From Gemmatimonadales bacterium (GTDB lineage: Bacteria; Gemmatimonadota; Gemmatimonadetes; Gemmatimonadales; GWC2-71-9), in contig DASYEH010000014.1 of the NCBI GenBank assembly GCA_036499125.1, forward strand, positions 53,156 to 117,155: DNA of 64,000 bases, given 5' to 3'. Below are positions 895-16,588 of the stretch, one piece after another. Below the pieces are notes generated by a model, which was not told the origin of the DNA, searched no databases, and saw only the letters and a list, made by a program, of their open reading frames with translations. How positions within the stretch are numbered: position 1 is the first letter of the stretch; every line of letters begins with the position of its first letter. The position numbers were made by a program, and so were the translations under genes.

Positions 895-970
895 TCATAG
901 GAAATGGGCTGAGGGACGGGCGTCCGGATACCCTCCGGCGAACGTCCCCACATCCACCCGGGCGCAGGTG

Positions 971-1011
971 TTTGCCGTATCCGGCAAATCAGGTGACCTC
1001 GTGACGAGGTC
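971..1011. promoter_or_regulatory. Two palindromes immediately upstream of the XRE gene (candidate operators)
   Basis: TTTGCC-gtatcc-GGCAAA at 971-988. Perfect GACCTCG-TGA-CGAGGTC at 995-1011, 6-27 nt before the possible start codons at 1017/1023/1038. Confidence 0.3.
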
Positions 1012-1016
1012 GCGGG

Positions 1017-1406
1017 TTGGATATGCTCTGGATTGAAATGTCACACGATCTTCTCAAGACATATCTCCGCATGTACCGACGACGATCGGGACTAACCCAG
1101 GCCGATGTGGCATACCTGCTCGGCCGAGTCTCAGGGACCACACCGTCACGCCACGAAATGGCAACGCGGATCCCGACGCTTGAAATCCTGCTTGCGTATC
1201 AGGTAATGCTCGGAGTGTCGATTGGGGAGATCTACGAGGGCGAGCTTGCTCGGATTGATCGAGAGGTACGGGCGCGGGCGCGCGGATTGCGGCGGTATCT
1301 GGAGCACCGGCCTGCAACTGCTGACCTGCGCAGGCGGATCGTATATGTCCAGGGCCTCGAAGATTCTGCCGGCTTACCAGCGCACCCGCCCAAATCCCAT
1401 GCGTAA
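1017..1406 (+). CDS. XRE-family helix-turn-helix transcriptional regulator
   Basis: LRMYRRRSGLTQADVAYLLGRVSGTTPSRHE is a classic XRE HTH. The true start may be the ATG at 1023 or 1038. The stop (1404-1406) overlaps the next gene's ATG at 1399. Confidence 0.7.
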   Translation: MDMLWIEMSHDLLKTYLRMYRRRSGLTQADVAYLLGRVSGTTPSRHEMATRIPTLEILLAYQVMLGVSIGEIYEGELARIDREVRARARGLRRYLEHRPATADLRRRIVYVQGLEDSAGLPAHPPKSHA

Positions 1407-1932
1407 ACCATCGCCCAACCATTATCGCCTGTTGTCGATCGATCCGTCCCCTGCGGGATTTGGTTTTGCCATCATCGAAGGAGGATATCGCCTAGTCGAG
1501 TGGGGCGTGGCGCGCGTCTGGTCGACCAATGATCAAGAGTTTCTCGCAAGGGTGGAAAGCAGGATCGACCGATTTCGCCCCTCCGCCGTCGTGCTCCTCG
1601 ATCGCTCAGCCGACCGGCGTGAGAGCGGGGTGCTCAATCGCTGGCGTCTCCTGCAGCCGTATTGCACAAGCCGGTACCTTCCGGTCTTTTTGGTCAGTGG
1701 CTCACTGATCAAAGAGGTGTTTCGGTCAACCGGATCTACCAAAAGTCAAATCGCTTCTGCCATTGCCGAAGAGTTTCCTGAACTTGAGGGCCGGCTGCCC
1801 GCAACCCGGAAGGCCTGGATGTCGGAAGGCGAGCAGATGAATGTATTTGATGCCGTGTCGTTCATCGTCGCGCTGCGACACAAGTCGCCGCAATCTAAAG
1901 GGAGCAACAACGCTTCGTTAGGCAGGCCCTAG
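1399..1932 (+). CDS. RuvC-like / RNase H-fold nuclease-like protein
   Basis: ATG at 1399 chosen over the long upstream ORF. LLSIDPSPAGFGFAIIEG resembles the RuvC N-terminal (L/I)GIDPG strand. FRPSAVVLLD, YLPVFLVSGSLIKEV and NVFDAVSFIVAL follow the RuvC order of acidic-residue strands and helices. There is an 8-nt overlap with the XRE gene. Confidence 0.5.
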   Translation: MRKPSPNHYRLLSIDPSPAGFGFAIIEGGYRLVEWGVARVWSTNDQEFLARVESRIDRFRPSAVVLLDRSADRRESGVLNRWRLLQPYCTSRYLPVFLVSGSLIKEVFRSTGSTKSQIASAIAEEFPELEGRLPATRKAWMSEGEQMNVFDAVSFIVALRHKSPQSKGSNNASLGRP

Positions 1933-2417
1933 AACCCAAAGCCGTCGGGGCGCTGGCCATCTGTGGGCGGTACGCCGTACACGGTTGTCGCGAATGATCC
2001 GTGCACGATGTATCCGCTAGGCCCATTCGTCACGCTCGTCAGTGTTAGGGTGAAGGCATTATTGACGAGATTAAAGGTGCCCGGATCCACGTTTGCCCAC
2101 TGCGACGCCTCACCGGCGGCATTCTTGAATTGGCCGAGCACGATTTCGGCGCTCGCGACTCCGTTGCGTTCAGTGTATGTCCCGATCGCCGGTTGTCCGG
2201 TAAAGACCACTTGAGCGGTGTAGGTGGAATACAGATTGTTCGCCAGGATTGTCACGGTGGTCTCGTTCGAGGCGGCATTGTACGTAGCCGTGACACTCGG
2301 GCAGTCAGGGTTCGTGCCGGTGATGCAGGGTGGGCTTGATATGGCGTCAGAACTATCGCTGCATCCGGCCAGCTGGGCCCCGAGAACCAACGAGAGGAGC
2401 GGGACGAATCGTCGCAT
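1929..2417 (-). CDS. Lipoprotein, unknown function
   Basis: Start chosen at 2417 (MRRFVPLLSLVLGAQLAGCSD = signal peptide plus lipobox). GAGGA sits upstream. The longer 239-aa ORF has an implausible Arg/Cys-rich N-terminus. Confidence 0.6.
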   Translation of the reverse strand: MRRFVPLLSLVLGAQLAGCSDSSDAISSPPCITGTNPDCPSVTATYNAASNETTVTILANNLYSTYTAQVVFTGQPAIGTYTERNGVASAEIVLGQFKNAAGEASQWANVDPGTFNLVNNAFTLTLTSVTNGPSGYIVHGSFATTVYGVPPTDGQRPDGFGF

Positions 2418-2617
2418 TGGACTGTCCTCAGAAAGACGGTGAGTGTGGCGGCCGGCGCTATTTCCGCCCAGCGTTTTCCGGCTAGGGCGGCTGACCCGCC
2501 ATCTGGATTGGTGCCAGGCCTTCACGTTTAGGGGGACCGGGCGTATGATCCAGCGTGTACTAAAACAAATCGCACAAGATTTCGCACAGACGTTACTACG
2601 GCGCCAGGGCCCTGTCA

Positions 2618-2995
2618 ATGACCGGGGAGCCGCGGCGTACCCTTTCAACGCTTCGCGACGCGGTGCGGGGCAGGGTGGAGGCCACCTCGCTTCGCGTCGT
2701 GGCCGACGAGATCGGCATGAGCTTTAGCGGATTGCGGACGTTCCTTCAGGGCGCGAGACCGAATGAGGCTACCCGGTCGAAGGTCGTAGCATGGTATGTG
2801 TCATCACAGCAAGGATCGAAGGGGTCAATAACGGGCGACACCGATGTGGCCACCGCACTTGTCGCGGCTTTCGTTGCGAGGGCTTCCGGGAAGGCGAAAA
2901 CGCGGCGCGCAGTGGACGCTATGCGCCGCGTGTTGGAGGAATTGTCAGTGTCGGAACGGAGGGCCGTCCTCGAGGCCCTCGGGCGCGGTGATTAG
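2618..2995 (+). CDS. Hypothetical protein with HTH-like segment
   Basis: SLRVVADEIGMSFSGLRTFLQG looks like a helix-turn-helix. No further family signal. Confidence 0.4.
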   Translation: MTGEPRRTLSTLRDAVRGRVEATSLRVVADEIGMSFSGLRTFLQGARPNEATRSKVVAWYVSSQQGSKGSITGDTDVATALVAAFVARASGKAKTRRAVDAMRRVLEELSVSERRAVLEALGRGD

Positions 2996-3094
2996 TCGAG
3001 CGACTCTACCGTCATGCGGGAGTGATCATTCCCGCCAGGCAGACAAGAAGCCTTCGCTGGGTCACGCACACTATTGCCTTATCGCACCAGACGA

Positions 3095-3526
3095 TCATGG
3101 CAAATACTTCGGGCTTGCGATCCGTTGCACGTTAGCCCATGTCCATTCAAGTATGGTAGTTAGGCCAGCAACGGTCGACAAATCCTTGGAGCGGTTCGAT
3201 CGCAGCCCGATCACTGGAAAGTCCTTTGCCTGCAGACGCATCACCAGGTCGGCAACGCTGTCGGGCATCGATTTGCCTCCTTCAATCAGGACAACTGCGA
3301 AGTTGCAATCGGTCCAACGCTGATCACGGTCGACCTCAGCAAACGAGACGGTACTACAGAGTCTGCTAATGTGGAACAGGCCATTCTTACTCGCAGCTTG
3401 GGCTTCGAGCAGGTCGGCGAAACGCGCGTGTTCTGGGCTATAAATGACGAGCAGCCGTTTCACGTCTGATTCCTTATCATCGAGGGTTAGAATGGTGCAG
3501 GAGACCTCTGCCTTGACAATAACCAT
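3095..3526 (-). CDS. Hypothetical protein, possibly a degenerate receiver-like domain
   Basis: KRLLVIY...FAVVLIEGGKSMPDSVADLVMRLQAKDFPVIGLRSN resembles a CheY-like receiver but has Glu where the phospho-Asp would sit. The locus is low-GC. The N-terminal extension to 3691 is antisense to the transposase relic and was discarded. Confidence 0.3.
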   Translation of the reverse strand: MVIVKAEVSCTILTLDDKESDVKRLLVIYSPEHARFADLLEAQAASKNGLFHISRLCSTVSFAEVDRDQRWTDCNFAVVLIEGGKSMPDSVADLVMRLQAKDFPVIGLRSNRSKDLSTVAGLTTILEWTWANVQRIASPKYLP

Positions 3527-3596
3527 GGTTGCCTGGTTCGGCAGCCGACGCCGAAATGCCCAAACGTCAGCTGAAGTAGGGACGTATCTGCTCCGG

Positions 3597-4060
3597 ATTG
3601 ATCGCTCTCGGTTCGCAGGAGCGATGGACGATGGACTTTGTGTAGATCCGATGGCCGATGGTCGGCCGTTTCGGATGCTCACCGTGGTCAATCAGCGCAG
3701 TCGCTCCGGTCCGATCCTGGAGGCTGCCTTTTCGATCCGCGAACAGGACGTGGCGGCGGCGCTCGATCAGACGATCGCGATGCACGGCGCTCCGCGATCG
3801 ATCACCGTCGATCACGGCGCAGAGTGAGTGGGGCGTGCTGGGACTCTACAAGGCGCGGCGACCTCACGGATACCAGCCACATTGAGGTTATAATTGTCGG
3901 TTGTCCGGGATAGGTGCCTCAACGTCCACCAGTTCATGTCACCGACCGATGCGCGGGCGAAGGCGGGGGATTGTTGATGTGATTCTAATCAGGTCCGGCC
4001 ATACAGCTCGCTCGGTTACCTGACCCCCGTCAAGTGCGGAAGTCCATCAGGAAAAAGGAA
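3597..4060 (+). pseudogene. IS3-family transposase (OrfB / rve integrase core) relic
   Basis: AMDDGLCVDPMADGRPFRMLTVVNQRSR...GAPRSITVDHGAE matches the WAMDF..DGR.FR.LTVVD.FSR...G.P..I.VDNG.EF pattern. A stop at 3825 and roughly 50 missing codons follow. Then FMSPTDARAKAGDC*CDSNQVRPYSSLGYLTPV with an in-frame TGA at 3975. No intact ends or OrfA were seen. Confidence 0.7.
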
Positions 4061-4349
4061 TCGCGGAAGCGCGATCACTTTACGCCCACCTGCCGATAAA
4101 CGGGTCAAGTCCATTTTCGGTTGCCGTTACCGCCTGCGGCGCTAACTCGGCGGCTCACGCCCCCGGGTAGCCGCACAGTCGGATCGCGTTTTGTCCACGT
4201 CAGGGCTCCGAGGTTGCCGGTAGATCTCATCTGTAGCCGAAACGAGATTGTTATGAAGATTTCTTCACGATTGATGAACCTTGCGGCGAACTCGGTTACC
4301 GCACTAAAATAGCGTCGTCCCGCTCCCTCCCTCGTCTGCGGAGATCCCT

Positions 4350-4661
4350 TTGAAACGACCGAGCCGAATGGTCCCATCAATCGATTTGCTTCCGCCGCAA
4401 ATGCCCCAAGAGCGCAGGTTGCGGCTGATTCAGGCGCATCTTTGCTGCACTCCGGCACAGGCCAGAATCCTGCTGTGCTGCCCGAGCGGTCGGTCGTGTG
4501 CTGAGATAGCGGCGGAATTGAACCTTGCAGAGGGAACGGTTCGTTCTCATATGCATTCATTTTTCGAGCGGTCGCAATGCTTGGGCAGCAACCACGCGTC
4601 AGGCCTTGTAGCCTCCGTGCTTTGGCAAGTTGCCGCTGGACTCCTTAAGGACCCGGCATAG
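4350..4661 (+). CDS. LuxR/GerE-type HTH protein (HTH-only, possibly a remnant)
   Basis: TPAQARILLCCPSGRSCAEIAAELNLAEGTVRSHMHSFFER fits the LuxR C-terminal HTH pattern (LT..E..VL.L...G.S..EIA..L.IS..TV..H). TTG start. No receiver or ligand domain. Confidence 0.45.
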   Translation: MKRPSRMVPSIDLLPPQMPQERRLRLIQAHLCCTPAQARILLCCPSGRSCAEIAAELNLAEGTVRSHMHSFFERSQCLGSNHASGLVASVLWQVAAGLLKDPA

Positions 4662-5238
4662 ACGGTCTACTACGTGCTAACACTGGATTGCCCTAGAATT
4701 CGCGCGCGCAATCGCCCGGCCCCACTCGGATTGAGTCATATAGCTTCGACTGACGTGAGATGCTCGGGCGCGGAACGGTGTCGTGACGGGCCGTACGATT
4801 GTTCGGCAAATCATATGAACTCTTTCCACGTCCCCGTGCGGTTGGGCGAGATCCGCTTGGTGCGATTCACCGTGAGCATCGTGAAGAAGCGCTCGGTCGT
4901 CGCACTATTCAGACAGTCGGCCGAATGACTCATCTTGCAGGGGAACCCAACCTCGACTCGGCGCTGCGTTTCGAATGGCTCGCAACCTGACTGCCACGCT
5001 CTGAGTGTCGCGCGCGCCGACGCATGCAAAGGTCCGTCACTGCGTCAGGCCGGTGTTGTTCGAGTAATAACGGCCGCAAGGACACGCCCAAATGGACGGC
5101 GACGTATCGCCCCTTTGCTCCGTCAGAGTGTACCATGCGGTCTACACCGATAGGTCTATATCGTTCGGTCGTATTTCATAACAAACGGATATGCGGTAAC
5201 GTTCTATTTCATTCAGGAGCAAAACGCTCGGAGGCAAC

Positions 5239-5922
5239 GTGTCGGATCGCCGTTTAGGTGCACTGATTATACCTGTAGTTCAGGCAATCTGCGTTGTAAT
5301 CGTCACAGTAGCGATCGTTCGCCACGAATTTTTTTCTGCAAACACAAGGCAGTCGATTGCGACCACCAAACTGTCGCAAGCGCAGTGGCGAGGTGTACTA
5401 GCGGGTGGACACTGGATGGGATCACCGAAAGCGCTCGTGACAGTGGTTGAGTTTGGCGATTTTCAATGCCCGGCTTGTCGCGTGTTCAGCACGGTTAGTC
5501 TTCGTGGAGTACGGGCAAAGTACGGAGACAGTGTTGGCGTATTGTTTCGCCATTGGCCACTTGCCTATCATGAACACGCCTATGCGGCTGCCCGGGCGAG
5601 CGAATGCGTTGCAGCGGAAGGCTCATTCGAGCGCTTCTTTGACGCGGTTTACGACAAGCAGGACTCGCTAGGCCTTCGGCCGATCGAGGCGTTTGCACGA
5701 GACGCTGGCGTTCAAGATTCCAGTGCCTTCGCGACGTGCAATGCGAGCAAGCTTCCCGTTGAGGCGATTGAGGTGGATCGCAAAGAGGCGCTCTCTCTCC
5801 ATGGCTCGGGCACTCCAACAATAATCGTTAATGGCGTTCAACTTGGTGGTGTTCCGGACAGCATTGCCTTTGATGAGCTCGTTGGCAAGGCTCTCAAAGC
5901 CGCGATTCGCAACAGCAAGTGA
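5239..5922 (+). CDS. DsbA-family thiol:disulfide oxidoreductase, N-terminally membrane-anchored
   Basis: GTG start with CGGAGG 5-10 nt upstream. TM helix LGALIIPVVQAICVVIVTVAIV. Thioredoxin-fold motif VVEFGDFQCPACRVF (CPAC). C-terminal GSGTPTIIVNG. Confidence 0.8.
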   Translation: MSDRRLGALIIPVVQAICVVIVTVAIVRHEFFSANTRQSIATTKLSQAQWRGVLAGGHWMGSPKALVTVVEFGDFQCPACRVFSTVSLRGVRAKYGDSVGVLFRHWPLAYHEHAYAAARASECVAAEGSFERFFDAVYDKQDSLGLRPIEAFARDAGVQDSSAFATCNASKLPVEAIEVDRKEALSLHGSGTPTIIVNGVQLGGVPDSIAFDELVGKALKAAIRNSK

Positions 5923-5944
5923 CTACCGTCGTGTCTTGTGTCCG

Positions 5945-7108
5945 ATGGAGTCCAACGTGAAACTGCGTGTCGTTATTGGACGCGGTGTTGCGGCCGTCCT
6001 AATCATGGCGTCGTGCAAAGATGACAGCTCTCAATGGAGGCTTGATCTGCCTTCAGGGGTGAGCGAACATGGGCCGCGGGACACAATCGTTGCGCCCCTC
6101 ATGCTAACGGAAGTTCGTCGCATTAGCTTTGACAGCAATGCCTCGCTGTTGACGCCGATGACCGTTAGTGCAAGTGGCGTTGTTGCCGTTTTCGACTACA
6201 CTACGTGCGGATTCTATCTGCTCCAACTCCCCACTGGCGATTCGATCGGTCACGCCGGAAGCTGTGTTCCCGTGAAGCGGTTCGGTCAAGCACGTGGGGC
6301 CTTTTTCCTCGGCGATACTCTTGTCGTCTTCGATGGTCGAACTCACGAGCTCATACGATTCGATCGTATTGGTGATGAGCTTGGCAGAGTCCAAGCGCCG
6401 GGATCGCTAGCCATGACTGGGGCGTTACGAGTAAGCTCGATGAGCGTAGTCGGTGGCGACACCGTTCTCGCCGATCGTGACCTAGCAGCAACGAGTGTCG
6501 ATGGACGGTTGGTCGTATTTACAATGACTAGTGACGGCGCGGTCGCAACGTTTCTCGCCGATGTACCCGGAAGTCGTGCTAATGGAGAGTCTGAGCCGAT
6601 TCTGGGAATCCGTGGCTGCAGCGCGGATTGGAACGGGCGACATCGAATCGTCGCTACGCAGCCGTGGAGTTTTGAAGCGGTTATTTTCGATGAGAAACAC
6701 TCCCCGTTGTGGTCGGTCTATATCCCATTGTCTTGGACGGGCGCCCACCAAGCGCCGGACCATTCACTAGGTGCAGTTTGGCCCAAAGCAACTCTTCGAA
6801 CGCCACTGTGCGGGTCATGGGGAACGCTACTGCGCTTTGGAAGGGTAGACCCTTTCGTGTTTCGGACGTCGACCTATCCGAACGGTGGGCACCTTGAGTT
6901 ATGGGATTCAATCGGGCAACGACGGTTGGCGGTAGACGTTGGCAACGGCCATTCGTATCTATTCGGTGCAGCGGTTACCTGGAAGGATCTCATCGTTTTC
7001 GAGGACGGCGATTCACGGCTTCGCGTTTTTCAGCTCCAACAACTTTCGCAGAGGACTAGCGGGGCGTCCCACAGAGGCAACATTGCCATTCGGGTGCTGC
7101 CCAATTGA
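5945..7108 (+). CDS. Exported beta-propeller lipoprotein (6-bladed-propeller-like family)
   Basis: Start at 5945 gives MESNVKLRVVIGRGVAAVLIMASCKDD (lipobox). Repeated blade-like segments. The C-terminus (LELWDSIGQRRLAVDV...LIVFEDGDSRLRVFQL) parallels the other three propeller paralogues in this window. Confidence 0.6.
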   Translation: MESNVKLRVVIGRGVAAVLIMASCKDDSSQWRLDLPSGVSEHGPRDTIVAPLMLTEVRRISFDSNASLLTPMTVSASGVVAVFDYTTCGFYLLQLPTGDSIGHAGSCVPVKRFGQARGAFFLGDTLVVFDGRTHELIRFDRIGDELGRVQAPGSLAMTGALRVSSMSVVGGDTVLADRDLAATSVDGRLVVFTMTSDGAVATFLADVPGSRANGESEPILGIRGCSADWNGRHRIVATQPWSFEAVIFDEKHSPLWSVYIPLSWTGAHQAPDHSLGAVWPKATLRTPLCGSWGTLLRFGRVDPFVFRTSTYPNGGHLELWDSIGQRRLAVDVGNGHSYLFGAAVTWKDLIVFEDGDSRLRVFQLQQLSQRTSGASHRGNIAIRVLPN

Positions 7109-7248
7109 AACGTCGGAAGCTGCAAAGCTGGGTTTGGCGCGCTGCAGTGGCGCCAATGATGTGGCGGGCAGAGTTTGACGTCCGCTAGCAGGCGCGACCA
7201 ACGGAAATCCGTCCGTTTCGCGAGTCAGACCAAAGCATCGGAGGGGTT

Positions 7249-7500
7249 GTGAAAGCGCTGATTGCGAAGGTTTTGGTGCCCGCGTTTTTTGCGGTTGCAG
7301 TTGTCATGGTGTATTCTCCAACGCAGGCGGTTGCGCGAGAGACTGGCGGGTCGTACTGCGGTGGGGTACCCTCGAACGGCTGTTGCGATTGCGACGGAGG
7401 AGTTGCCGGAAACTCTTGTGAAGCGAACAATGACTCGGGATATTTTGAATGCAGTTCGTCAGGCTGCCCAACCGTGCAGGCGAAATGTAAAGTCAACTGA
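7249..7500 (+). CDS. Small secreted cysteine-rich protein (83 aa precursor, 8 Cys in a ~54-aa mature part)
   Basis: GTG at 7249 preceded by GGAGGGG (7240-7246). Signal peptide MKALIAKVLVPAFFAVAVVMVYSPTQAVA. Mature ETGGSYCGGVPSNGCCDCDGGVAGNSCEANNDSGYFECSSSGCPTVQAKCKVN. Followed by a perfect terminator. Confidence 0.6.
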   Translation: MKALIAKVLVPAFFAVAVVMVYSPTQAVARETGGSYCGGVPSNGCCDCDGGVAGNSCEANNDSGYFECSSSGCPTVQAKCKVN

Positions 7501-7507
7501 CTGCTGT

Positions 7508-7543
7508 GAGACACGGCCGGACTAAATTGGCCGGCCGTGTCTC
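7508..7543 (+). terminator. Intrinsic terminator hairpin after the Cys-rich peptide gene
   Basis: Perfect 13-bp stem GAGACACGGCCGG / CCGGCCGTGTCTC with a 10-nt loop, followed by the T-rich AAGTATTTGTT. It begins 8 nt after the stop codon. Confidence 0.75.
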
Positions 7544-7600
7544 AAGTATTTGTTCGAAACGACCGATATACTTCAGACCATCCGCAATATCCCTATATGC

Positions 7601-8833
7601 ATGGAGTCATACGTGATGTTGATCTCATGGCCTGATCGGTTCCGGCAATTGATCGCTGTTTCAGTATTACTGCTCACTGTCTTCCGCGGCGGCAGCGCAC
7701 AGTCACGCGGTCGCCAAACGAGGGTGATTCGCGGGGACACCATCGTGGCACATTTGCCGAACGTTGGCCGGTGGGGGCCGCCACGGGTTGCAACTCCGCT
7801 TCCGCAAAGCGCTCAACAGCTTGCGCAGGAATTCGGCAATGTGACCGGTTTGGCAGCATTGCCAAATGGCGGTGTGCTGGCTTTCGACGCAGGTGGTCAG
7901 TCGGGGCCCTCACTCCTAGAGTTTGATTCCGCCGGGAGATTTGTAAAGACGATTGGGCGGGAAGGGGCTGGTCCGGGCGAATACACTCATCGCGCAGGTG
8001 ATATCGCGGTTGCTGGAAATGGGCAGATATTTCTCCGCGATGGCGTCCATGGGAGGATCAATCATTACGATCGTGATGGGAGGCTACTAGGTACAATCAC
8101 TTCATCGGCAATTCTGCCGATTTTCAAGGGCATGTCACCCCAGGAAGACGGCTCTGTGTTTGTCCTTTCTCCCGGCCTTGGGACTGGTGAAGATGCACCA
8201 ACGATGAGTCATTTCTCGCCCAGCGGAGCCCTAATCGAGGTGCGATCCCCGCCAGTCCAACCATATTCCACGGTGATCTATGGTGGACCGTTTCTACCTT
8301 TTTCGGCATGGACAATCCTACAAAATGGACGGACGGTCTCAGTTAGGTCAGACCGAGCTGGAATACTTCTGAGTCCTGCTCATGGGAGCCACACGTTTAG
8401 GTTGACAGAGATTGAAAGTCAGGCTGAACGTTTTTTCCCGGCTGAGCGCGCTGAAATGCAAGCGCAAATCGATTGGTACGTCAAATATGACCCTCGTGAT
8501 ATGCCGATCAGGACGGTCGTACCTTCAGTCAAACAGTTCATTATATCTCTGGCGGTTGATGTGAACAACAGGATCTGGGTTCGCCGGACTGGTGTATCAA
8601 TCAAGAGTGCTGAAGGCATTCCTTTGCCCAAGCCGAACGAACCACCGCTTGTTACATACAAGGAGCCATGGATATTCGATGGATTCACAGCCGAGGGTGA
8701 TTTTTTGGGAGAGGTCCGTTTTCCCTCAAATATAGTTCGAGTTTCAATTGCCAACGATATTGCGTGGGCTATCGTTACGAATGTCAATGACGAGCAATCG
8801 CTAGTAAGATTCCGACTGCCAGCCGGACAATAA
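7601..8833 (+). CDS. Exported beta-propeller protein (GAGPGE-motif 6-bladed-propeller-like family)
   Basis: Start taken at ATG 7601 (7616 is also possible; TTG 7550 abuts the terminator). Signal peptide LIAVSVLLLTVFRGGSAQ. IGREGAGPGEYTHRAGDIAVAGNGQIFLRD and repeated blade motifs. C-terminal IWVRR...VRFPSN...LVRFRL is shared with the paralogues. Confidence 0.65.
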   Translation: MESYVMLISWPDRFRQLIAVSVLLLTVFRGGSAQSRGRQTRVIRGDTIVAHLPNVGRWGPPRVATPLPQSAQQLAQEFGNVTGLAALPNGGVLAFDAGGQSGPSLLEFDSAGRFVKTIGREGAGPGEYTHRAGDIAVAGNGQIFLRDGVHGRINHYDRDGRLLGTITSSAILPIFKGMSPQEDGSVFVLSPGLGTGEDAPTMSHFSPSGALIEVRSPPVQPYSTVIYGGPFLPFSAWTILQNGRTVSVRSDRAGILLSPAHGSHTFRLTEIESQAERFFPAERAEMQAQIDWYVKYDPRDMPIRTVVPSVKQFIISLAVDVNNRIWVRRTGVSIKSAEGIPLPKPNEPPLVTYKEPWIFDGFTAEGDFLGEVRFPSNIVRVSIANDIAWAIVTNVNDEQSLVRFRLPAGQ

Positions 8834-8842
8834 CGATATTGG

Positions 8843-9064
8843 TCACCCTGACCACATCCACTCAATGATCGTAGACATGAACTGCGCTTCTGGTCGATTG
8901 TGGCCCGTCTCCCAGTTATTGACGGTGTCCTTCGTTACTCCGAAAATCGTGGCGACGTCCCTCTGGAGCAGCCCGATTTCAATCCGGTGCGCGCGAATCT
9001 GATCACCTAAGTGCTTGACTTGTTTGGGGTAACCAGGCTTCGGGCGGACCGTTCTAAGCCTCAC
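8843..9064 (-). CDS. XRE-family HTH regulator (short PGYPK...LG..IR..R type)
   Basis: PGYPKQVKHLGDQIRAHRIEIGLLQRDVATIFGVTKDTVNNWETGHNRPE. GTG start at 9064, only 13 nt from the comM fragment. Confidence 0.7.
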   Translation of the reverse strand: MRLRTVRPKPGYPKQVKHLGDQIRAHRIEIGLLQRDVATIFGVTKDTVNNWETGHNRPEAQFMSTIIEWMWSG

Positions 9065-9077
9065 CGGTATTTGCGCA

Positions 9078-9563
9078 ATGAATCCCTGCCCATGCGGCTT
9101 CCTGGGTGATCCTTCGCGCGCGTGCAGCTGTGCGCCAGCCGCAGTGCAGCGCTATCACGCCCGGATCTCAGGGCCGCTGCTCGATCGCATCGACATGCAC
9201 TTGCAGGTGCCCCCGGTGGCATACGCCGACCTCGCGTCACGCGCGGCGGGCGAATCGAGTGCGACGGTGCGGAGCAGGGTCGAGGCGGCGCGCGACCGTC
9301 AGCTGCAGCGCTTTCGGCATTGCCCGGGGATCTACGCCAACGCGCACATGGGGCCGCGAGAGTTGTCGCGGTTCGTGAGCATCGATGGCCCGACCGAACA
9401 GGTGCTGAAGAGCGCGATTGCGAAGTTCGGGTTGTCCGCGCGCGCATATCACCGGGTACTCAAGCTGGCGCGGACGCTGGCGGACCTGGCGGGCGTCGAC
9501 GAAATCGCGCCGGTACATGTGACCGAGGCGATTCAGTACCGGGTGCTTGATCGGGGGGAGTGA
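9078..9563 (+). pseudogene. comM: comM/yifB (Mg-chelatase-like AAA+ competence protein), 3' fragment only
   Basis: Begins at the conserved (A)MNPCPCG motif and continues LLDRIDMHLQV...SARAYHRVLKLARTLADLAG...HVTEAIQYR, which is the ComM C-terminus. In-frame stops lie at 9000 and 9030 upstream. About 340 N-terminal codons (the AAA+ core) are absent. Confidence 0.8.
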
Positions 9564-9704
9564 CCTGAGCGGCTAACCGCGCCTGCGGCCGGCGCCCAAA
9601 AACCGCCGCGCCGCCGCCGGCGTTAACCAGACATCACACGCTCGCCGGACCGACACTGGCGTAACTTGTGAATGATGGTTCCCCGCGACCGACGCTGAGG
9701 CAAC

Positions 9705-11030
9705 ATGAGGGAAGTGACGCTGCTGGTCCTCGCGTTCCTGGGCGGGGTGCTGACGATCCTGAGCCCCTGCATCCTGCCGGTCATTCCGCTGGTCTTCGCG
9801 CGGGTCAATCGCGACTTCCGCCGCGAGATCATTCCGATGCTCGGCGGGCTGGCGCTGGCCTTTACCTGTGCCGCGCTGATCGCCACCGCCACCGCCCGCT
9901 GGCTCCTCGCCGCCAATGAAATCGGTCGCGACCTGGCGCTGGCGCTGCTCGCCGTTGTTGGCGTGACGCTGCTGCTTCCCGCCAGCGCCACGCTGCTCGC
10001 CCGTCCGTTGGGCCGGATCGCTGGTCGGGTCCTTTCCCCCCGCCCAGGCTCGGTCGCCACACCGGCCCGCAATGTCGTCATCGGCGCAGCGATTGGCCTC
10101 CTCTGGGCGCCATGCGCCGGGCCGATCCTCGGACTCCTGATCGCCGCAGCCGCCACCAGCAGCTGGTCCCACGCGGCCCTCCTCTACCTGAGCTTTGCTC
10201 TCGGTGCCATCATGTCGCTCGCGATCGTGACCTCCGCCGGTCGTCGCCTCATCGCCGCGCTCCGTCACGTTGGCACGCCCGATCTTGTCGTACGCCGCGT
10301 GCTCGGCGTCGCAACACTCGTGACCGTCCTCGCCATCGTCTTTGGCTGGGATCAGGCGATCTTCGGGAAGGCTGGGCTGGTACAGACCGCCAGTGCGGAG
10401 GAAGTCCTCGTGTCGCGGCTGGCGCCACAGCACGTGCGCTCCGACAATGCGGGATTGTCCCTCGACCAGTTCGCCGCCCAACAGTCTGCTCACCGCGCCG
10501 CGCTGGCGGCACTGCCCGCATCGGACGGCGTGATGCCCGGATTCGACGGCGCCACCGAGTGGATCAACTCGCCACCGCTGACAGCCAAGTCGCTGCGCGG
10601 CAAGGTCGTGCTGGTGGAGTTCTGGACCTTCGCGTGCTACAACTGCCTCAACGCCCTGCCGCACATCAAGGCGCTCTACGCCAAGTACAAGGATCGTGGC
10701 TTCGTGGTGATCGGCGTGCACACGCCCGAGCTGGCGCGCGAGCGGGTGCCCGAGAATGTCCGCCGAGAGGTGAAGCGTCTCGGCATCGAGTTCCCGGTCG
10801 TGATCGACAACGACAACCGGATCTGGAATGCCTATCACAATGAGTACTGGCCGGCGATGTTTTACGTCGACGCGAGCGGACAGATGCGCTTCCACATGTT
10901 CGGTGAAGGGCGCTATGGTGAGCAGGACAATGGTGTGGCTGCGCTGCTGGACGAACGGGATGCCATGATGCATTACGACCCGGGCACGGCGAAGATCGGC
11001 GCGATGGGCGGCGGCGGGATGTCGCGGTAA
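9705..11030 (+). CDS. dipZ: DipZ-like fusion: CcdA/DsbD-type thiol-disulfide transporter plus thioredoxin-like (redoxin) domain
   Basis: TM-domain motifs LSPCILPVIP and LWAPCAGP. Periplasmic GKVVLVEFWTFACYNCLNALPHI (CxxC) and GVHTPE. Confidence 0.85.
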   Translation: MREVTLLVLAFLGGVLTILSPCILPVIPLVFARVNRDFRREIIPMLGGLALAFTCAALIATATARWLLAANEIGRDLALALLAVVGVTLLLPASATLLARPLGRIAGRVLSPRPGSVATPARNVVIGAAIGLLWAPCAGPILGLLIAAAATSSWSHAALLYLSFALGAIMSLAIVTSAGRRLIAALRHVGTPDLVVRRVLGVATLVTVLAIVFGWDQAIFGKAGLVQTASAEEVLVSRLAPQHVRSDNAGLSLDQFAAQQSAHRAALAALPASDGVMPGFDGATEWINSPPLTAKSLRGKVVLVEFWTFACYNCLNALPHIKALYAKYKDRGFVVIGVHTPELARERVPENVRREVKRLGIEFPVVIDNDNRIWNAYHNEYWPAMFYVDASGQMRFHMFGEGRYGEQDNGVAALLDERDAMMHYDPGTAKIGAMGGGGMSR

Positions 11031-11032
11031 CC

Positions 11033-11653
11033 ATGACGCCTGCTGGCGATTCGCACCCCCGGCCGAAGCTCGCGGTTGCAACTGCAGTACAGGCCGGGCT
11101 GCGCGAGCGGCTTCTGGCGCGGGACGAGACGGCCTTGGCCGAGCTGGTCGACCTGGCGTCACCATGGCTCCTGGGCGTGACCGAATCGATCCTGCGCGAT
11201 CGCAGCGAAGCGGAAGAGGTCGTCTTCGATGTCTTCGATACTGCGTGGCAGAAAATCGGTGAAGTGGAACCCGAGCGCGGCGGGCTGATGCCGTGGCTCC
11301 TCAGGGTCGCCCGGAACCGGGCGATCGACCGCCTCCGCCGGCGCAACCGTCGGCTCCGCACCATAGACAGCGCCCGCGCGAGTGGCGTGCTCGGCGACGA
11401 CATCACGGCGCCACCGGATGTGAATGAAGCCGGAACACCTGGCTGGCACGTGCATGCGCAAGTGCACGCCGCCCTGGCCGCGTTACCCGACGAGCAACGT
11501 GCCCCGGTGCGGTTGGCATACTTCCATGGCCTGACCCATTCGGAGATTGCCCGCGAGCTCTCGATTCCAATGGGGACAGTCAAGACGCGACTCAGGCTGG
11601 CGTTTGATCGGCTCCGGCCGGCGCTGGCGTCACTGAAGGATTGGGTGCAATGA
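11033..11653 (+). CDS. ECF-type RNA polymerase sigma-70 family factor
   Basis: Region 2 WLLRVARNRAIDRLRRR. Region 4 ALPDEQRAPVRLAYFHGLTHSEIARELSIPMGTVKTRLRLA. Starts 2 nt after the dipZ stop. Confidence 0.9.
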   Translation: MTPAGDSHPRPKLAVATAVQAGLRERLLARDETALAELVDLASPWLLGVTESILRDRSEAEEVVFDVFDTAWQKIGEVEPERGGLMPWLLRVARNRAIDRLRRRNRRLRTIDSARASGVLGDDITAPPDVNEAGTPGWHVHAQVHAALAALPDEQRAPVRLAYFHGLTHSEIARELSIPMGTVKTRLRLAFDRLRPALASLKDWVQ

Positions 11654-12375
11654 CCTCACATGACTGGTTCATCGAACATCGTACCGCGTGGATCGCGCGC
11701 GCGCTCGACGCCGAAGAGGAAACGAGCTACCGCGATCACCTCGCCCGCTGTGCCGAGTGTCGCGACGCGGTGGCCGAACTGCAGCGCGAGTTCGGCTGGC
11801 TCTCAATGGGGGTTGAACCGGTGGCGCCGCGTCCCGGATTTCGCCGCGAAGCGCTCGATCGGATTGTCGGTGCGCGTCGTCGCCGTCGCAGCTGGATCCT
11901 CCCGACGGCGCTCGCGGCGTCACTACTCCTCTCCCTCGGCGTCAATGGCTATCAACGTGCCAGGATCGTGGCGCTTGATGCCAGTACGGCCGTAACACAG
12001 ACCTCGGTCGTGGCCCTGCGCGACACACTCTCGGTGCAGCGCGATGCCGGACAGGTGATGCACGCCGATTTCGCGGCGAGCGGCGCGCCGTGCAGCATCA
12101 CCATCATTGCCGATGGTCACACTCATCGCTGGGACGTCGTTGTGCACGGCCTTCCACCAGCGCAGCCCGGGCAGAAGTACCAGTTCTGGTTCATCACCGA
12201 CGACGGCATGCGGCAGGGTGTCTCGATCGACGCGGTACCGGGGAGAGTGTCCACCTTCCTGACCGGGATGCCTCCCGGCCATGCTCGCGTCATGGGGGCG
12301 GCGCTCAGCATCGAACCGCGGGAGAACGACGGCACCGAGATGCAGGGGGCCGAGCTCGCCAAGATCATGATGTGA
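11650..12375 (+). CDS. Anti-sigma factor, zf-HC2 N-terminus plus RskA-like C-terminal domain
   Basis: ATGA overlap with the sigma gene. HLARCAECRDAV (H-x3-C-x2-C). One TM helix (WILPTALAASLLLSLGV). C-terminal GLPPAQPGQKYQFWFITDDG...GAALSIEPRENDG fits the RskA pattern. Confidence 0.8.
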   Translation: MTSHDWFIEHRTAWIARALDAEEETSYRDHLARCAECRDAVAELQREFGWLSMGVEPVAPRPGFRREALDRIVGARRRRRSWILPTALAASLLLSLGVNGYQRARIVALDASTAVTQTSVVALRDTLSVQRDAGQVMHADFAASGAPCSITIIADGHTHRWDVVVHGLPPAQPGQKYQFWFITDDGMRQGVSIDAVPGRVSTFLTGMPPGHARVMGAALSIEPRENDGTEMQGAELAKIMM

Positions 12376-12384
12376 TGGCGGCGC

Positions 12385-12735
12385 CTACGGCAGGATCACG
12401 ATCCTGCCGGCATTCGCCTGGACGGGGCAGGAGACTTCCTCAAGCCCGATCGGGTAGGCGTCCACGGTCTGGCCCACGGCGAGTTGCCCCGACGAACTGG
12501 CGTGTGACCCCTTCAGGACCTGGGTCGCTTGACCCACGTTGAACCAGCCGCTCAAGCTGCACGCTCCGGGAGTCTTCAAGCCATTGCTTCCGTCGACGAA
12601 GATCCTGGTGCTATCGATTGACGCAATGAGGCCGTGGACTGCGGGACCGAGGTCGTTGGACGGCGGCGGGCCCATCTGGTCGGAACAGGCGGCCAGGGCG
12701 GCAGCGAGAATCAGGATTGCAGCAGTGGGTCGCAT
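12385..12735 (-). CDS. Small lipoprotein, unknown function
   Basis: MRPTAAILILAAALAACSD lipobox. Convergent with the anti-sigma gene. A 9-bp palindrome GGCAGGATC/GATCCTGCC lies at its 3' end. Confidence 0.6.
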   Translation of the reverse strand: MRPTAAILILAAALAACSDQMGPPPSNDLGPAVHGLIASIDSTRIFVDGSNGLKTPGACSLSGWFNVGQATQVLKGSHASSSGQLAVGQTVDAYPIGLEEVSCPVQANAGRIVILP

Positions 12736-12911
12736 GACGAATCTCCCGGGCGCGAGATCTGAACAGGCCTGCCCGCGAAGTATGCTGCCGGGTCAGCGGA
12801 CCGCAAGAGTGCGACCCGCGCCATGAAGGCCACGATTTACGTGGCCCTTGTGGCATTGCGATGGCCGCGTCCTTGAGCGATTGTCCGTGATACCCCTGCG
12901 CCAAGGCATTC

Positions 12912-15218
12912 ATGCGCCCCTTTCTGTCCAGCCTGTTGTTCACCGCCTCCGTCATGGCGACACCCGGTCCCGGTGGCCCTGGGCGACCCTTCTACGATCG
13001 GCTCCTCGACCGACTCGACTCAACACGCACCTTGGGCGCGTTGCCGCGCCAGGAGTGCCAGCCGCTTGATGCGGCCAATCAGCGTCTCTGCACCGCCTTC
13101 ATTGCCGAGCGGCAGTTGGTTCTCTCTGGCGACCGGACCATTGGCCGCCAGGCGGAGGCGGGCTTTGAGCGCGCGGTGCTTGAGCTCCCCAAGTCAGCAG
13201 TTGCCTGGTACGGTCTCGGGATAGTTCGCATGCAGCTCGCGCAGGACACCGCCTTCTCCCGTGGCGGCGCGGAGATGGGGGTCGGTGTCAGCTATCTCAC
13301 GGGGGCGGTCAACGCCTTCGCCGCAGCGGTTGATCTCGACCCGACATTCGGCAGAGCCGTCGAGGCGCTCGCCCTCTGTCCCATCGGTCGTGATGAAGGA
13401 CGGACGATTGCCAGACGTGTCGCGTTGCTCAGGAAGGTGCGCGCGGCGATTCCCGCGCGCGCAGCGCTTGCCGTCGCAACGGTCGAGCGGAATGGCGGAT
13501 CGATCGACTCGGCACTCGCGCTCGAGCGGCGCGCTCTCCATGCGGCTGTGGTCGATTCGGGCACGGCCTCGCTGGCGCTGGCCCGCGACCTGTACGCTAC
13601 CGGTCGCTCGCAGGAGGGTCGGGATGTCCTGTTGCGTGGAGCAGGCACGCCGACGCCGTTGGCGGCGTCGGCGTATCGCGCCGAGCTGGGATTTGTCGCG
13701 TCGCCGGGCGAATTGACGCAATGGGATAGTCTGCCGCCCGCCCGCCGACCGGCATGGCTCGCCGATTTCTGGCAGAAGCGTGATATCTCCGAAGGGCGAA
13801 ACGATGGTGCTCGACTGGTCGAGCACTATCAGCGGGTGGAGTATGCGCTGAAGCACTTTGCGCTGGTCCTACCGCAAACTGGTCGGCAGCGGATGTTGTC
13901 GTATCTGCCCTCCGGAATGGACATGACGGCCACGGTGCTTGATCGAGCCATGAGCGATCCGAGCTGTGGCAGCGGCGTTGCCCAATACGCACTCCTCGAT
14001 CGCGACCTCGGCTCACATGTCCCATGGCGCGACTACAAGCCGACGCAGGACGAAGTGGATGATCGTGGTGTCATCTGGATCCGTCACGGGCCACCCACCC
14101 GCCGTGCCATCAGCAACGCCACCGAAGCGGCTGAGGTCTGGCAGTATGACCGTGCACCGCACCCGCTCGTGCTCCAGTTTCACGAAGTGCTCTTCAACGG
14201 TATTGGTGCGAGTACGCTGGTGTCGACCCTGGTGACGATGCCGGCGGCCACGCGCTTGCAACTGTGCGGCGTGGAGTACACGCTCTGCATTCCGGGAGAT
14301 GATGTTGCTGCCCTCGCCATGCGAAAGCAGGTCACGTCTCGCAATGTTTGCTCACTCGCAGCAGCCGTTGTCCCTGTGGCCGCCGAGGAGATTCGCCGCG
14401 ATCATGACGCCGGCCTGGTGGCGCTGCATGCGGCAACCACGACGGACTCATACACGCGTGACTTTGCCAAGGCGCTGCGCCCGGGCGTGCAGATGCTCGG
14501 CTTGGCACGCACGGAGGCGGGGCAGCAGCCCGAGCTGGTGGTCGCGTATGCGCTGCCCGGCGAACAGCTTGCGGCGACTCGATCGGGAGGCCGGACGACG
14601 TACAAGGTGCAGCTCCACCTCCTGGCGTCGCGGTTCGACGGGTCGCGCGTCGATCTCGATACGGCGGTCACCTTTCAGGTGGACTCCGCGCTCGGCCGTG
14701 GGCAGTATCTCAACGGACTCCTGCCGATGGCACTTCCGCGCGGAGCGTATCACGTCAGTCTCGTCATCACGCAGCCGGATGGCCGTGGCGCCATTGCTCA
14801 TATGGACAATGTGATCCTGCCGGACTGGGCGGGCGGACCGCTGAGCGCCAGCGACGTGGCCTTGGGGGTGCTGAACCACGGTGTGCACTGGAACTCAGGT
14901 CGCAGCAACGTCTGGCTCAACCCGGCGGACACCTTTCAAGAAAACCAACCGGTCGAAGCCTATTTCCAGGTCCACGGGCTGCAGAGCGGTCAGCAGTATG
15001 CGGTGCGCGTCGAGTTGTACAAGGGTGATCCGGTCGCGGGAGCACCGCTGGTCCTGTCGATCGGGACGACGATCCTGGCGACCGGCACGTCGATGGAGAT
15101 CGCCCGGACCCTCGATGTGTCGCGACTCGGCCCCGGCCGCTATCGGATGCAGGCAGTGGTCTCGGCGGGCAGCCAGGTCGTCACGACGGGATCGTGGTTG
15201 ACGGTGGTGCGGCGGTGA
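12912..15218 (+). CDS. GWxTD-domain-like secreted protein (TPR-like N-terminus)
   Basis: WLADFWQKRDISEGRNDGARLVEHYQRVEYALKHFA, then DDRGVIWIRHGPPTRR, follows the GWxTD-domain layout (FW..RD...EY..R..YA..F....(GW.T)DRG..yi.yGPP). The literal GWxTD motif is degenerate. Confidence 0.55.
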   Translation: MRPFLSSLLFTASVMATPGPGGPGRPFYDRLLDRLDSTRTLGALPRQECQPLDAANQRLCTAFIAERQLVLSGDRTIGRQAEAGFERAVLELPKSAVAWYGLGIVRMQLAQDTAFSRGGAEMGVGVSYLTGAVNAFAAAVDLDPTFGRAVEALALCPIGRDEGRTIARRVALLRKVRAAIPARAALAVATVERNGGSIDSALALERRALHAAVVDSGTASLALARDLYATGRSQEGRDVLLRGAGTPTPLAASAYRAELGFVASPGELTQWDSLPPARRPAWLADFWQKRDISEGRNDGARLVEHYQRVEYALKHFALVLPQTGRQRMLSYLPSGMDMTATVLDRAMSDPSCGSGVAQYALLDRDLGSHVPWRDYKPTQDEVDDRGVIWIRHGPPTRRAISNATEAAEVWQYDRAPHPLVLQFHEVLFNGIGASTLVSTLVTMPAATRLQLCGVEYTLCIPGDDVAALAMRKQVTSRNVCSLAAAVVPVAAEEIRRDHDAGLVALHAATTTDSYTRDFAKALRPGVQMLGLARTEAGQQPELVVAYALPGEQLAATRSGGRTTYKVQLHLLASRFDGSRVDLDTAVTFQVDSALGRGQYLNGLLPMALPRGAYHVSLVITQPDGRGAIAHMDNVILPDWAGGPLSASDVALGVLNHGVHWNSGRSNVWLNPADTFQENQPVEAYFQVHGLQSGQQYAVRVELYKGDPVAGAPLVLSIGTTILATGTSMEIARTLDVSRLGPGRYRMQAVVSAGSQVVTTGSWLTVVRR

Positions 15219-15259
15219 CGGCGCGTTGCGGCGCGTGGCAACATTGACACCGCGTTGTC

Positions 15260-16360: not shown

Positions 16361-16588
16361 GATGGCCTCTTGTTGCTGGGGGAAGGAGAGCAGCGCGAGG
16401 GGCGCGATGGGGCTCCACCTCGACGATAACCCCGGATCAGCTTTTTGGCGCGCAAACGCCGGCGCCCGTGCATCCCCACTGCCACCCCGCGTCTCCCAAC
16501 CGGTGCCGTTACTGGCAGCCCGGCAGGATGGTCGCGCTGGATCTCCCGGCCCGGACCGCTCCGCCAACCTCATTCCACGGAGTCTCTC

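Follow-up and report, generated by a model that had tools for sequence, protein, structure and literature searches.

A putative island-borne cassette of a DsbA-type oxidase, a cysteine-rich exported mini-protein and an NHL-type propeller in a Gemmatimonadales genome

Bacteriocin loci such as the sublancin 168 operon, sunA-sunT-bdbA-sunS-bdbB, and that of enterococcal bacteriocin F4-9 encode their own thiol-disulfide oxidoreductase beside a disulfide-containing peptide (PMC6606811). In the mau cluster, both MauD and MauE are required for the formation of the six disulfides in the methylamine dehydrogenase (MADH) small subunit (bioRxiv 10.64898/2026.03.05.709764). DsbA paralogues dedicated to a substrate are also described, namely DsbL/DsbI with AssT in uropathogenic E. 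coli and SrgA of the Salmonella virulence plasmid (PMC6067686). Here we analyzed a 64,000-nucleotide stretch of a Gemmatimonadales metagenome-assembled genome (MAG; contig DASYEH010000014.1, positions 53,156 to 117,155), referred to below as the window, in which four co-directional open reading frames (ORFs) on the plus strand lie inside a low-GC stretch. We refer to these four genes as the cassette: gene 1 encodes a DsbA-type oxidase, gene 2 an orphan exported protein, gene 3 the precursor of a Cys-rich mini-protein (the window peptide) and gene 4 a beta-propeller (Table 1). The cassette resembles the bacteriocin loci, which are often carried by mobile elements such as the SPbeta prophage (PMC6606811), in that an exported and putatively disulfide-bonded peptide is found together with what may be its own oxidoreductase; and, as with DsbL/DsbI-AssT and SrgA, an extra DsbA stands beside a specific exported candidate substrate on accessory DNA (PMC6067686).

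The reading that we favour, and to which we give somewhat better than an even chance, is that the genes form a unit carried by the island, whose oxidase is dedicated to the folding of a periplasmic mini-protein that is hypervariable, anionic and rich in disulfides, and whose propeller serves as a partner. The cassette looks real but undescribed, and nothing was found in the literature on this combination of genes. A metagenome scan with gene 1 returned just four relatives, 42-49% identical to it (L090, L091, L092 and L093), and in all four a Cys-rich ORF (7-8 Cys where complete) lies directly beside the DsbA gene; in the window, one gene stands between the two. The gene order DsbA-peptide-propeller recurs in L093, and a propeller of the GAGPGE family is the next gene in the window, L090 and L093. 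Strong Shine-Dalgarno sites were found ahead of the peptides (GAGGAGG, AGGAGG and, in the window, GGAGGGG). It is important to mention that the scans of the sequence collections were pattern-based, and relatives may have been missed.

The peptide ORFs of L091 and L092 were compared codon by codon, and an omega (dN/dS) of 0.16 was obtained, with 18.2 synonymous (Sd) and 12.8 nonsynonymous (Nd) differences; the omega of the DsbA gene was 0.07. This peptide ORF is a protein-coding gene under purifying selection, and because of its omega value we regard the peptide ORFs as real genes. Additionally, the five mature peptides compared are alike in character: they comprise 35-63 residues, of which 12-17% are Cys and about half are small, they carry a charge of -1 to -5, and they contain no His. 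Between L091 (1186-1350) and L092 (571-735) the signal differs at 1 of 27 residues and the mature part at 10 of 28, with all Cys kept. This contrast resembles conotoxin-type evolution, an analogy drawn from a small sample in which omega is below 1; positive selection on the mature peptide was considered but not demonstrated, omega being well below 1, dS saturated and the comparison only 28 codons long.

The locus had been pointed out in a reading made from the letters of the window (the sequence-only reading), which proposed a private DsbA tied to a disulfide-dense exported mini-protein, with propellers as possible partners, and suggested searching genomes for their co-occurrence. The adjacency seen in L090-L093, together with the omega of 0.16, supports this proposal, with a Cys-rich ORF at four of the four DsbA relatives and a propeller at two. 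As for the conservation of the peptide ORF, on which the proposal had been made to depend, it was found in the position of a Cys-rich ORF beside the DsbA gene, in 4/4 relatives, and not in the sequence, the window peptide being an orphan.

Gene 1 scores well above the Pfam cut-offs of Thioredoxin_4 (6.6e-22, 78.9 bits; cut-off 23.2) and DSBA (7.6e-11, 42.6 bits; cut-off 25.6). Its best matches in the PDB include DsbA 4pwp (1.5e-13), BdbD 3eu3 of B. subtilis (4e-9) and 7unn, and it can be aligned from end to end with the solved structures of DsbA 4pwp and BdbD 3eu3, a helical insertion of about 110 residues being present. The active site is C77-P-A-C80, accompanied by a GTPT cis-Pro loop and by C123/C167, a further conserved pair of Cys; all five subfamily members (the window and its four relatives) share C77PAC80 and G191-T-P193 without variation. 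The N-terminus contains a single hydrophobic segment, LGALIIPVVQAICVVIVTVAIV, which follows RR, has no cleavage motif and is kept in L090 and L091. On these features, gene 1 can be assigned as a membrane-anchored DsbA/BdbD-type oxidase that is predicted to face the periplasm. Moreover, gene 1 and the four metagenomic relatives show an invariant FRHWPLAYH motif, and each has CP[AV]C as well as the two Cys pairs, so that, judged by sequence, gene 1 belongs to a small DsbA subfamily marked by FRHWPLAYH and the second Cys pair; this subfamily has so far been found only beside Cys-rich ORFs. A cognate re-oxidant (DsbB, VKOR or MauE) was not found in window positions 1-16000 by ORF reading and by Pfam searches of selected ORFs. 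Plasmid searches returned generic actinobacterial DsbA only, at no more than 34% identity, and no propeller.

Gene 3 encodes a signal of 29 aa, consisting of the n-region MKALIAK, a 15-residue hydrophobic core and a predicted cleavage site between AVA and RE, followed by a mature part of 54 aa that contains all eight Cys (spacing 7, 0, 1, 8, 10, 4 and 6); the signal peptide and the 8 Cys of the 83-aa precursor had been noted in the sequence-only reading. The mature peptide has a net charge of -3, 54% small residues and neither His nor Trp. The distance from GGAGG to the start codon is 4 nt, equal to that of the DsbA gene. A word-indexed search of 5.8e9 clusters returned the window peptide only, and an exhaustive HMMER search of 1.84e9 representatives returned the peptide itself and four long repetitive proteins (one of them insect peritrophin-like), which were judged to be compositional matches and rejected as homologues. 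No similarity was found in the PDB, Pfam or NCBIfam. Neither the NCBI nor the JGI annotation assigns the peptide a protein accession, and it is called only in the Logan assembly. Precursor families of bacteriocins or of RiPPs (peptides made on the ribosome and modified after translation) in Pfam, NCBIfam, PADLOC and PHROGs gave no match for the peptide or its neighbours; in window positions 1-9600 we found no RiPP-type leader (of the double-glycine kind, for example), modifying enzyme, ABC transporter or immunity gene, and the signal of the peptide is Sec-type.

The hairpin that follows gene 3 has a predicted stability of -33.5 kcal/mol (z = -5.8), which was equalled by none of 200 shuffled sequences, and it was not picked up by a strict T-run scan. 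It is a candidate terminator or attenuator that may uncouple the transcript levels of the peptide and gene 4. On the opposite strand, a 109-codon ORF (7185-7514, minus strand) spans the whole peptide gene; it has no Shine-Dalgarno site, its start lies inside the hairpin, and it is not excluded by codon statistics.

Gene 4 matches the Pfam family DUF5128, "6-bladed beta-propeller" (1.2e-6, 28.4 bits; cut-off 22.9), and carries the motif GREGAGPGEY. The profile of its family matches the NHL domains of TRIM71, TRIM2 and Thin (1e-25 to 1e-31), and also peptidyl-hydroxyglycine lyase (PAL 3fvz; 9e-5). The signal of gene 4 ends in RGGSA, followed by QS, and because Ser replaces the lipobox Cys that is found in 81% of the family, the protein is, as far as the signal tells, a signal-peptidase-I product and not a lipoprotein. 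It contains no Cys at all, and the family is Cys-poor (median 1; none in 46 of 138 members). The homologues of gene 4 are at most 33% identical to it, and nearly all are from Gemmatimonadota. The conserved residues of the family are Gly, Pro, Asp, Arg, Trp and Glu only, with no catalytic cluster of His, Cys or Ser. Tandem paralogue arrays of DUF5128/NHL lipoproteins occur in Gemmatimonadota, and two to five family members were counted at 25 of 89 loci, a count that includes all loci, the window and duplicates. No mention of DUF5128 was found in the literature, nor any work linking NVEALA, Gemmatimonadota, NHL repeats and Cys-rich peptides. The Bacteroidetes branch of DUF5128 is often encoded beside small exported "NVEALA" proteins.

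Two more GAGPGE propellers are found in the high-GC core genome of the window (15260-16573 and 63221-64000, both on the minus strand; profile E 3e-45 and 1.5e-23); the window ends inside the second of them, and neither is beside a DsbA gene or a Cys-rich ORF. In locus L002, the region 7323-7782 between two intact tandem propellers contains a 44-aa lipoprotein signal and the C-terminal 110 aa of a decayed third propeller. The small ORFs in this region were therefore rejected as peptides, being the remains of that propeller, and they show turnover within propeller paralogue arrays.

Gene 2 has a lipoprotein-like signal that ends in LIMAS with C next, and its product is probably a lipoprotein, judging from this signal. 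Its reading frame is clearly coding (0.139 bits/codon in a leave-one-out codon model vs -0.22 to -0.31 in the other frames). Among 5.8e9 clusters it found only self matches, and no match was obtained in Pfam, NCBIfam, PADLOC, PHROGs or the PDB. The AlphaFold2 single-sequence model, with 18 strands and no helices, is unusable (predicted local distance difference test, pLDDT, 34; predicted TM score, pTM, 0.22). The sequence-only reading had taken gene 2 for a propeller lipoprotein starting at 5945 and had placed it in the same GAGPGE-motif family as gene 4. The lipoprotein assignment stands as probable, the start was revised, and the fold and the shared family were not confirmed: gene 2 and gene 4 show no relation at normal thresholds (BLASTP E = 3.3; hhalign probability 3.9-7.9%), gene 2 was missed by the 138-member propeller family profile at E <= 10 with default filters, and the GAGPGE motif is not present in it. 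As a GAGPGE-family propeller, gene 2 was rejected on these grounds. With the filters off, the profile gave 13.5 bits over residues 109-204, a score reached by none of 257 shuffles, which is a hint only of a relation to the propeller family. We therefore take gene 2 to encode an orphan, probably all-beta lipoprotein, possibly a very degenerate relative of NHL-like propellers.

The placement of the four genes in a lower-GC island, also part of the sequence-only reading, was borne out by base composition. The cassette genes have a GC content of 0.53-0.56 and, at third codon positions (GC3), of 0.50-0.56, against a GC3 of 0.75-0.83 in the flanking core genes. The GC content is 0.51-0.61 from position 1 to about 9070 of the window and 0.62-0.70 in most of the remainder, with the lowest values in the four cassette genes. 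The cassette is carried by a low-GC element of at least 17.9 kb (window 1-9077; L096 1-17917, the L096 coordinate being that of the window plus 8843), a length that is a lower bound, as the left end was not reached. At the right end, the 3' fragment of comM/yifB abuts the element and begins exactly where the GC content rises abruptly from 0.51 to 0.67. The AMNPCPCG motif of comM seems to be the site at which the island was inserted. A second copy of the island/comM junction sequence was not found in the DNA within reach.

A GGAG-type ribosome-binding site precedes each of the four genes. By the position of the Shine-Dalgarno sites, GTG 5957 is preferred over ATG 5945 as the start of gene 2, and ATG 7616 over ATG 7601 as that of gene 4; both revised starts match independent gene calls on the same DNA. 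Of the second propeller that the sequence-only reading had placed at 7601-8833, the GAGPGE-family assignment was thus retained and the start moved, and its membrane-anchored CPAC oxidase of thioredoxin fold was confirmed by the Pfam scores, active site and single N-terminal anchor of gene 1. A JGI contig is identical to the window across 17.1 kb. In the NCBI record, gene 1 ("thioredoxin domain-containing protein", a DsbA-like protein) and gene 4 ("6-bladed beta-propeller") have the consecutive accessions HEY4321953.1 and HEY4321954.1, and from this succession we infer that the record lists no protein for either gene 2 or the peptide. The cassette proteins gave no match in PADLOC or PHROGs, Rfam returned nothing, and a scan of viral contigs found no relatives.

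Table 1. Features of the cassette, of the element that carries it and of related loci. Coordinates are those of the window unless another locus is named.
Feature	Position	Strand	Remarks
DsbA/BdbD/MdbA-type thiol-disulfide oxidase (gene 1)	5239-5922	+	227 aa; GTG start; GGAGG 4 nt upstream
Orphan exported protein, predicted all-beta (gene 2)	5957-7108	+	383 aa; 4 further Cys
Shine-Dalgarno GGAGGGG of the peptide gene	7240-7246	+	read from sequence
Precursor of Cys-rich mini-protein (gene 3)	7249-7500	+	83 aa; Sec signal; 8 Cys
GC-rich hairpin, then U-rich stretch (UAUUUGUU)	7502-7548	+	begins 2 nt past peptide stop
NHL-type six-bladed beta-propeller, GAGPGE/DUF5128 family (gene 4)	7616-8833	+	405 aa
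LuxR/GerE-type helix-turn-helix (HTH) ORF	4350-4661	+	Pfam GerE 1.7e-6, above cut-off; 580 bp upstream of cassette
ComM/YifB Mg-chelatase-like ATPase	9078-9563	+	C-terminal third only; TIGR00368 positions 345-499
Two adjacent large serine recombinases	L096 1274-2752, 2970-4583	-	visible left part of element
Fic-domain ORF, NYN-domain ORF (the element also carries several HTH genes)			visible left part of element
L093			DsbA; 86-aa ORF with signal peptide and 7 Cys; propeller of the GAGPGE family (profile E 8.7e-22)
L092			DsbA; 90-aa signal-peptide ORF with 8 Cys; secreted non-propeller protein
L091			DsbA; L092-type peptide cut by contig end; near-orthologue of L092
L090			last 55 codons of 7-Cys ORF; DsbA; propeller (E 2.7e-31)
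L076 Cys-rich signal-peptide ORFs	L076 4996-5193, about 5801-5989		65 aa, ~62 aa

Several neighbouring features can also be described. The LuxR/GerE-type ORF upstream of the cassette is a possible regulator of it; in the Logan annotation, an alternative call on the minus strand overlaps this ORF. An imperfect inverted repeat of 27 nt (3930-3956 / 8858-8884; 74% complementary, with the 11-nt exact core CAGTTCATGTC) flanks the LuxR-type ORF and the four-gene cassette, and could mark a nested transposable unit or be due to chance. Just to the left of this repeat lies a fragment of an integrase-core (rve) domain (3444-3827, plus strand; weak Pfam match, 1.2e-3), probably from a decayed transposase, and the island ORF 1222-1932 (plus strand) has a weak match to the phage RuvC-like Holliday-junction resolvase family phrog_159 (E 1.1e-3). 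Directly outside the island, 9705-12375 (plus strand) encodes a fusion of a DsbD-type transmembrane domain with a thioredoxin-like domain of the AhpC/TSA-Redoxin kind, followed by an extracytoplasmic function (ECF) sigma factor and then a zf-HC2/RskA anti-sigma factor; this is a reducing-pathway and envelope-stress unit that adjoins the oxidizing cassette. Further on, a 768-aa secreted protein with no family match (12912-15218, plus strand), convergent with a core propeller paralogue, has a 75-residue local similarity (E 2e-5) to the gene that follows the L092 peptide (L092 900-1802), which suggests that proteins of this type are a further Gemmatimonadota-specific partner of such loci.

According to the reading that we favour, the cassette would have been acquired horizontally and would be Sec-dependent and directed to the envelope. 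The peptide precursor would be exported by Sec and cleaved by signal peptidase, after which the oxidase, a type-II membrane protein facing the periplasm, would introduce up to four disulfides into the 54-residue mini-protein. The 8-Cys peptide is the obvious candidate substrate of the DsbA because gene 4 has no Cys and the propeller family is Cys-poor; gene 2, with its 4 Cys, is a possible second substrate. Since the cassette contains no re-oxidant, we suppose that re-oxidation of the DsbA would fall to an enzyme of the host, of the DsbB, VKOR or MauE type, whose gene lies elsewhere. Once folded, the anionic and knotted mini-protein may then work with the Cys-free propeller of gene 4, and perhaps also with the gene 2 lipoprotein, either of which could be a binding partner, a carrier or a scaffold for target recognition. 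The hairpin would keep the peptide transcript in excess of the propeller transcript. The site of action would be the periplasm, or beyond it if an unlinked export route exists.

Comparison of the relatives shows a conserved oxidase and, in place of the peptide, Cys-rich sequences unrelated to it; the third gene is usually a GAGPGE propeller. Because a conserved oxidase is thus combined with a peptide that is swapped wholesale, on a mobile element, we are inclined to count the cassette among polymorphic systems for effectors, inhibitors or defence, and not among housekeeping pathways. The net negative charge of the peptides and the lack of an outer-membrane export gene in the cassette argue against a classical cationic bacteriocin; the latter also keeps periplasmic roles open. 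The sequence-only reading had gone further and proposed a self-contained oxidative-folding and secretion module; this part was not upheld, because the cassette has neither DsbB/VKOR nor export or outer-membrane secretion genes. It is not self-contained and depends on the Sec system and signal peptidases of the host.

Several results weigh against the favoured reading. The cassette lacks genes for a re-oxidant and for outer-membrane export. The window peptide has no homologue of any kind, so that the proposed peptide class is defined by context and composition. Between loci, the mature peptides cannot be aligned above shuffled sequences (pairwise Smith-Waterman, z from -1.4 to 1.75), and a single peptide sequence family, as implied by the sequence-only reading, was rejected for that reason. 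The codon-usage test does not separate the frames (peptide frame +1.3 bits, antisense ORF +0.4 bits), and the AlphaFold models are unusable for the peptide (pLDDT 45) as well as for gene 2 (pLDDT 34). The synteny is observed in four contigs of 1.3-1.8 kb that represent three lineages, two of the contigs being near-orthologues. Seen from the propellers, co-occurrence is rare. A genome scan with gene 4 yielded 80 loci, almost all from Gemmatimonadota, and about 790 kb were screened for Cys-rich ORFs (six-frame ORFs, 40-130 codons long, whose N-terminus resembles a signal peptide and which contain 6 Cys or more). The screen was positive for the window peptide and L076 only; 79 of the 80 genomic propeller loci have no Cys-rich ORF. 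A DsbA gene was found at a single one of the 80 (L021), about 3 kb away and of housekeeping type, adjoining an ECF sigma/anti-sigma pair, and at none of the rest; homologues of gene 2 or of the peptide were found at none of them. Most GAGPGE propellers are unrelated to Cys-rich peptides. Moreover, the propellers that adjoin DsbA genes form no clade, for which reason we consider the link to the propeller to be weaker than that between the DsbA and the peptide.

The L076 locus (1-7500), from another Gemmatimonadota MAG, is a second stretch of low GC content (0.52-0.58 beside 0.69). It contains four propellers of the GAGPGE family and a response regulator of OmpR type, together with two Cys-rich ORFs that have signal peptides. 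A CLSC-containing ORF upstream of these peptides, which by eye looked TlpA/thioredoxin-like, was not supported as such by Pfam, NCBIfam or the PDB. L068 was also rejected as a cassette, as it is a propeller array around resistance-nodulation-division (RND) efflux genes, and nothing of relevance was found upstream in L094.

A more specific form of the favoured reading is that polymorphic, conotoxin-like, disulfide-knotted mini-proteins of ribosomal origin, an undescribed class in Gemmatimonadota, each with a dedicated DsbA and an NHL propeller serving as receptor, immunity protein or carrier, are spread on integrative elements and act in interbacterial antagonism or defence. We put this forward tentatively, as a possibility that we regard as rather unlikely, and the same reserve applies to the part of it according to which such Gemmatimonadota mini-proteins combine a conserved signal with a hypervariable mature part and retained Cys.

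Among the explanations that compete with a dedicated cassette, the one that survives best, although we regard it as unlikely, is that unrelated envelope genes travel as loose cargo on a mobile island, the DsbA being a generic helper for exported proteins. DsbA-like genes are indeed common accessories of plasmids (128 plasmid records match, often beside VKOR), and a DsbA of this plasmid-encoded sort is SrgA of Salmonella (PMC6067686). Both gene 2 and the peptide are orphans, and GAGPGE propellers are abundant, with three in the 64-kb window, so that their adjacency to the other genes is not very improbable. On the other hand, a Cys-rich ORF at all four of the nearest DsbA relatives, as compared with 2 loci per ~790 kb elsewhere, speaks against this explanation, as does the repetition of the DsbA-peptide-propeller order in L093.

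We attach a low probability to a periplasmic complex similar to MADH, with the propeller as large subunit, the peptide as small subunit and the thioredoxin-fold protein as an assembly factor in the manner of MauD. The list of parts agrees, in that a propeller goes together with a small subunit rich in Cys and with a maturation factor that has CXXC and the thioredoxin fold; nevertheless, there is no Pfam or NCBIfam match to MauA, MauB, MauD, MauE or MauG, and a peptide without Trp could not form the tryptophan tryptophylquinone (TTQ) cofactor. The peptide sequence is not conserved between loci, unlike that of a catalytic subunit, its signal is Sec-type and not Tat, and the propeller family lacks the conserved His/Cys/Ser catalytic cluster. 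Just as improbable, in our opinion, is a thiol-rich periplasmic buffer or inhibitor, in which the peptide would bind a metal such as copper, or block a hydrolase or toxin, with the DsbA as its redox or repair partner in the way of the Scs proteins. The peptides are anionic and 12-17% Cys, the evidence takes them only as far as the periplasm, gene 1 is weakly similar to the copper-resistance protein ScsC (6nen, E 0.004), and an island would suit an accessory stress or defence trait. However, the peptide has neither His or Met nor the pattern of CxxC pairs that is usual at Cu(I) sites, and genes for copper efflux or sensing are absent from its neighbourhood. The gene 1 subfamily, moreover, has CP[AV]C and the helical insertion; this combination is typical of oxidases. 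Finally, it is very unlikely that the 83-codon ORF arose by chance in the 390-bp spacer between genes 2 and 4, with the hairpin terminating gene 2, for although the ORF has no homologue and no accession in the NCBI and JGI annotations, and the codon test does not decide between it and the overlapping 109-codon antisense ORF, it shares its Shine-Dalgarno spacing with the DsbA gene, its canonical signal and 8 Cys are combined at only one other locus in ~790 kb, the hairpin begins 2 nt past its stop but 394 nt past that of gene 2, its counterparts beside DsbA relatives are under purifying selection, and no Shine-Dalgarno site precedes the antisense ORF, whose start falls within the hairpin.

If the link between oxidase, mini-protein and propeller holds, the conserved DsbA subfamily could serve as a handle for exported disulfide-rich mini-proteins that are missed by searches and annotation, and the large GAGPGE/DUF5128 propeller family would gain its first functional lead. 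The cassette would also be a diderm example of a substrate-dedicated oxidative-folding catalyst on a mobile element. New chemistry is possible in a phylum that has barely been cultured, and disulfide-knotted peptides are stable scaffolds of pharmacological interest.

In comparison with the known systems, the bacteriocin loci, which are from Firmicutes, have leader peptides, ABC transporters and an immunity gene, and in glycocins a glycosyltransferase, whereas the cassette, which is from a diderm, has an ordinary Sec signal, lacks transporter and immunity genes, and encodes anionic peptides with 6-8 Cys; its propeller is a conserved neighbour, and no sequence relation was found in Pfam, NCBIfam or PADLOC. 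The mau cluster offers the closest list of parts, as it combines a beta-propeller with a disulfide-dense small subunit and with a factor of thioredoxin fold that has CXXC. Its heavy subunit, MauB, is a seven-bladed beta-propeller, while that of the cassette is six-bladed and NHL-type; the cassette also differs in its hypervariable peptides and in having no Mau homologue, no MauG, no MauE and no TTQ Trp. AssT, the partner of DsbL/DsbI, is likewise a propeller. In that system, however, it is the propeller enzyme that serves as substrate, and the oxidase has a DsbB of its own (DsbI), whereas the cassette propeller is Cys-free and no DsbB-like gene accompanies it. With the DsbA/BdbD/MdbA family, gene 1 shares the thioredoxin fold with helical insertion, the CPxC site, the cis-Pro loop and the membrane anchor, which is also found in actinobacterial and Bacillus enzymes, and it differs from them by the FRHWPLAYH motif and the second conserved Cys pair. 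Gene 4 is a member of the DUF5128/NHL family, but it lacks the lipobox Cys and stands beside a DsbA gene and a Cys-rich peptide gene. The known kind to which the cassette would belong is therefore the dedicated oxidative folding of an accessory exported peptide, and what is new here is the phylum, the NHL propeller as partner and the hypervariable orphan substrate.

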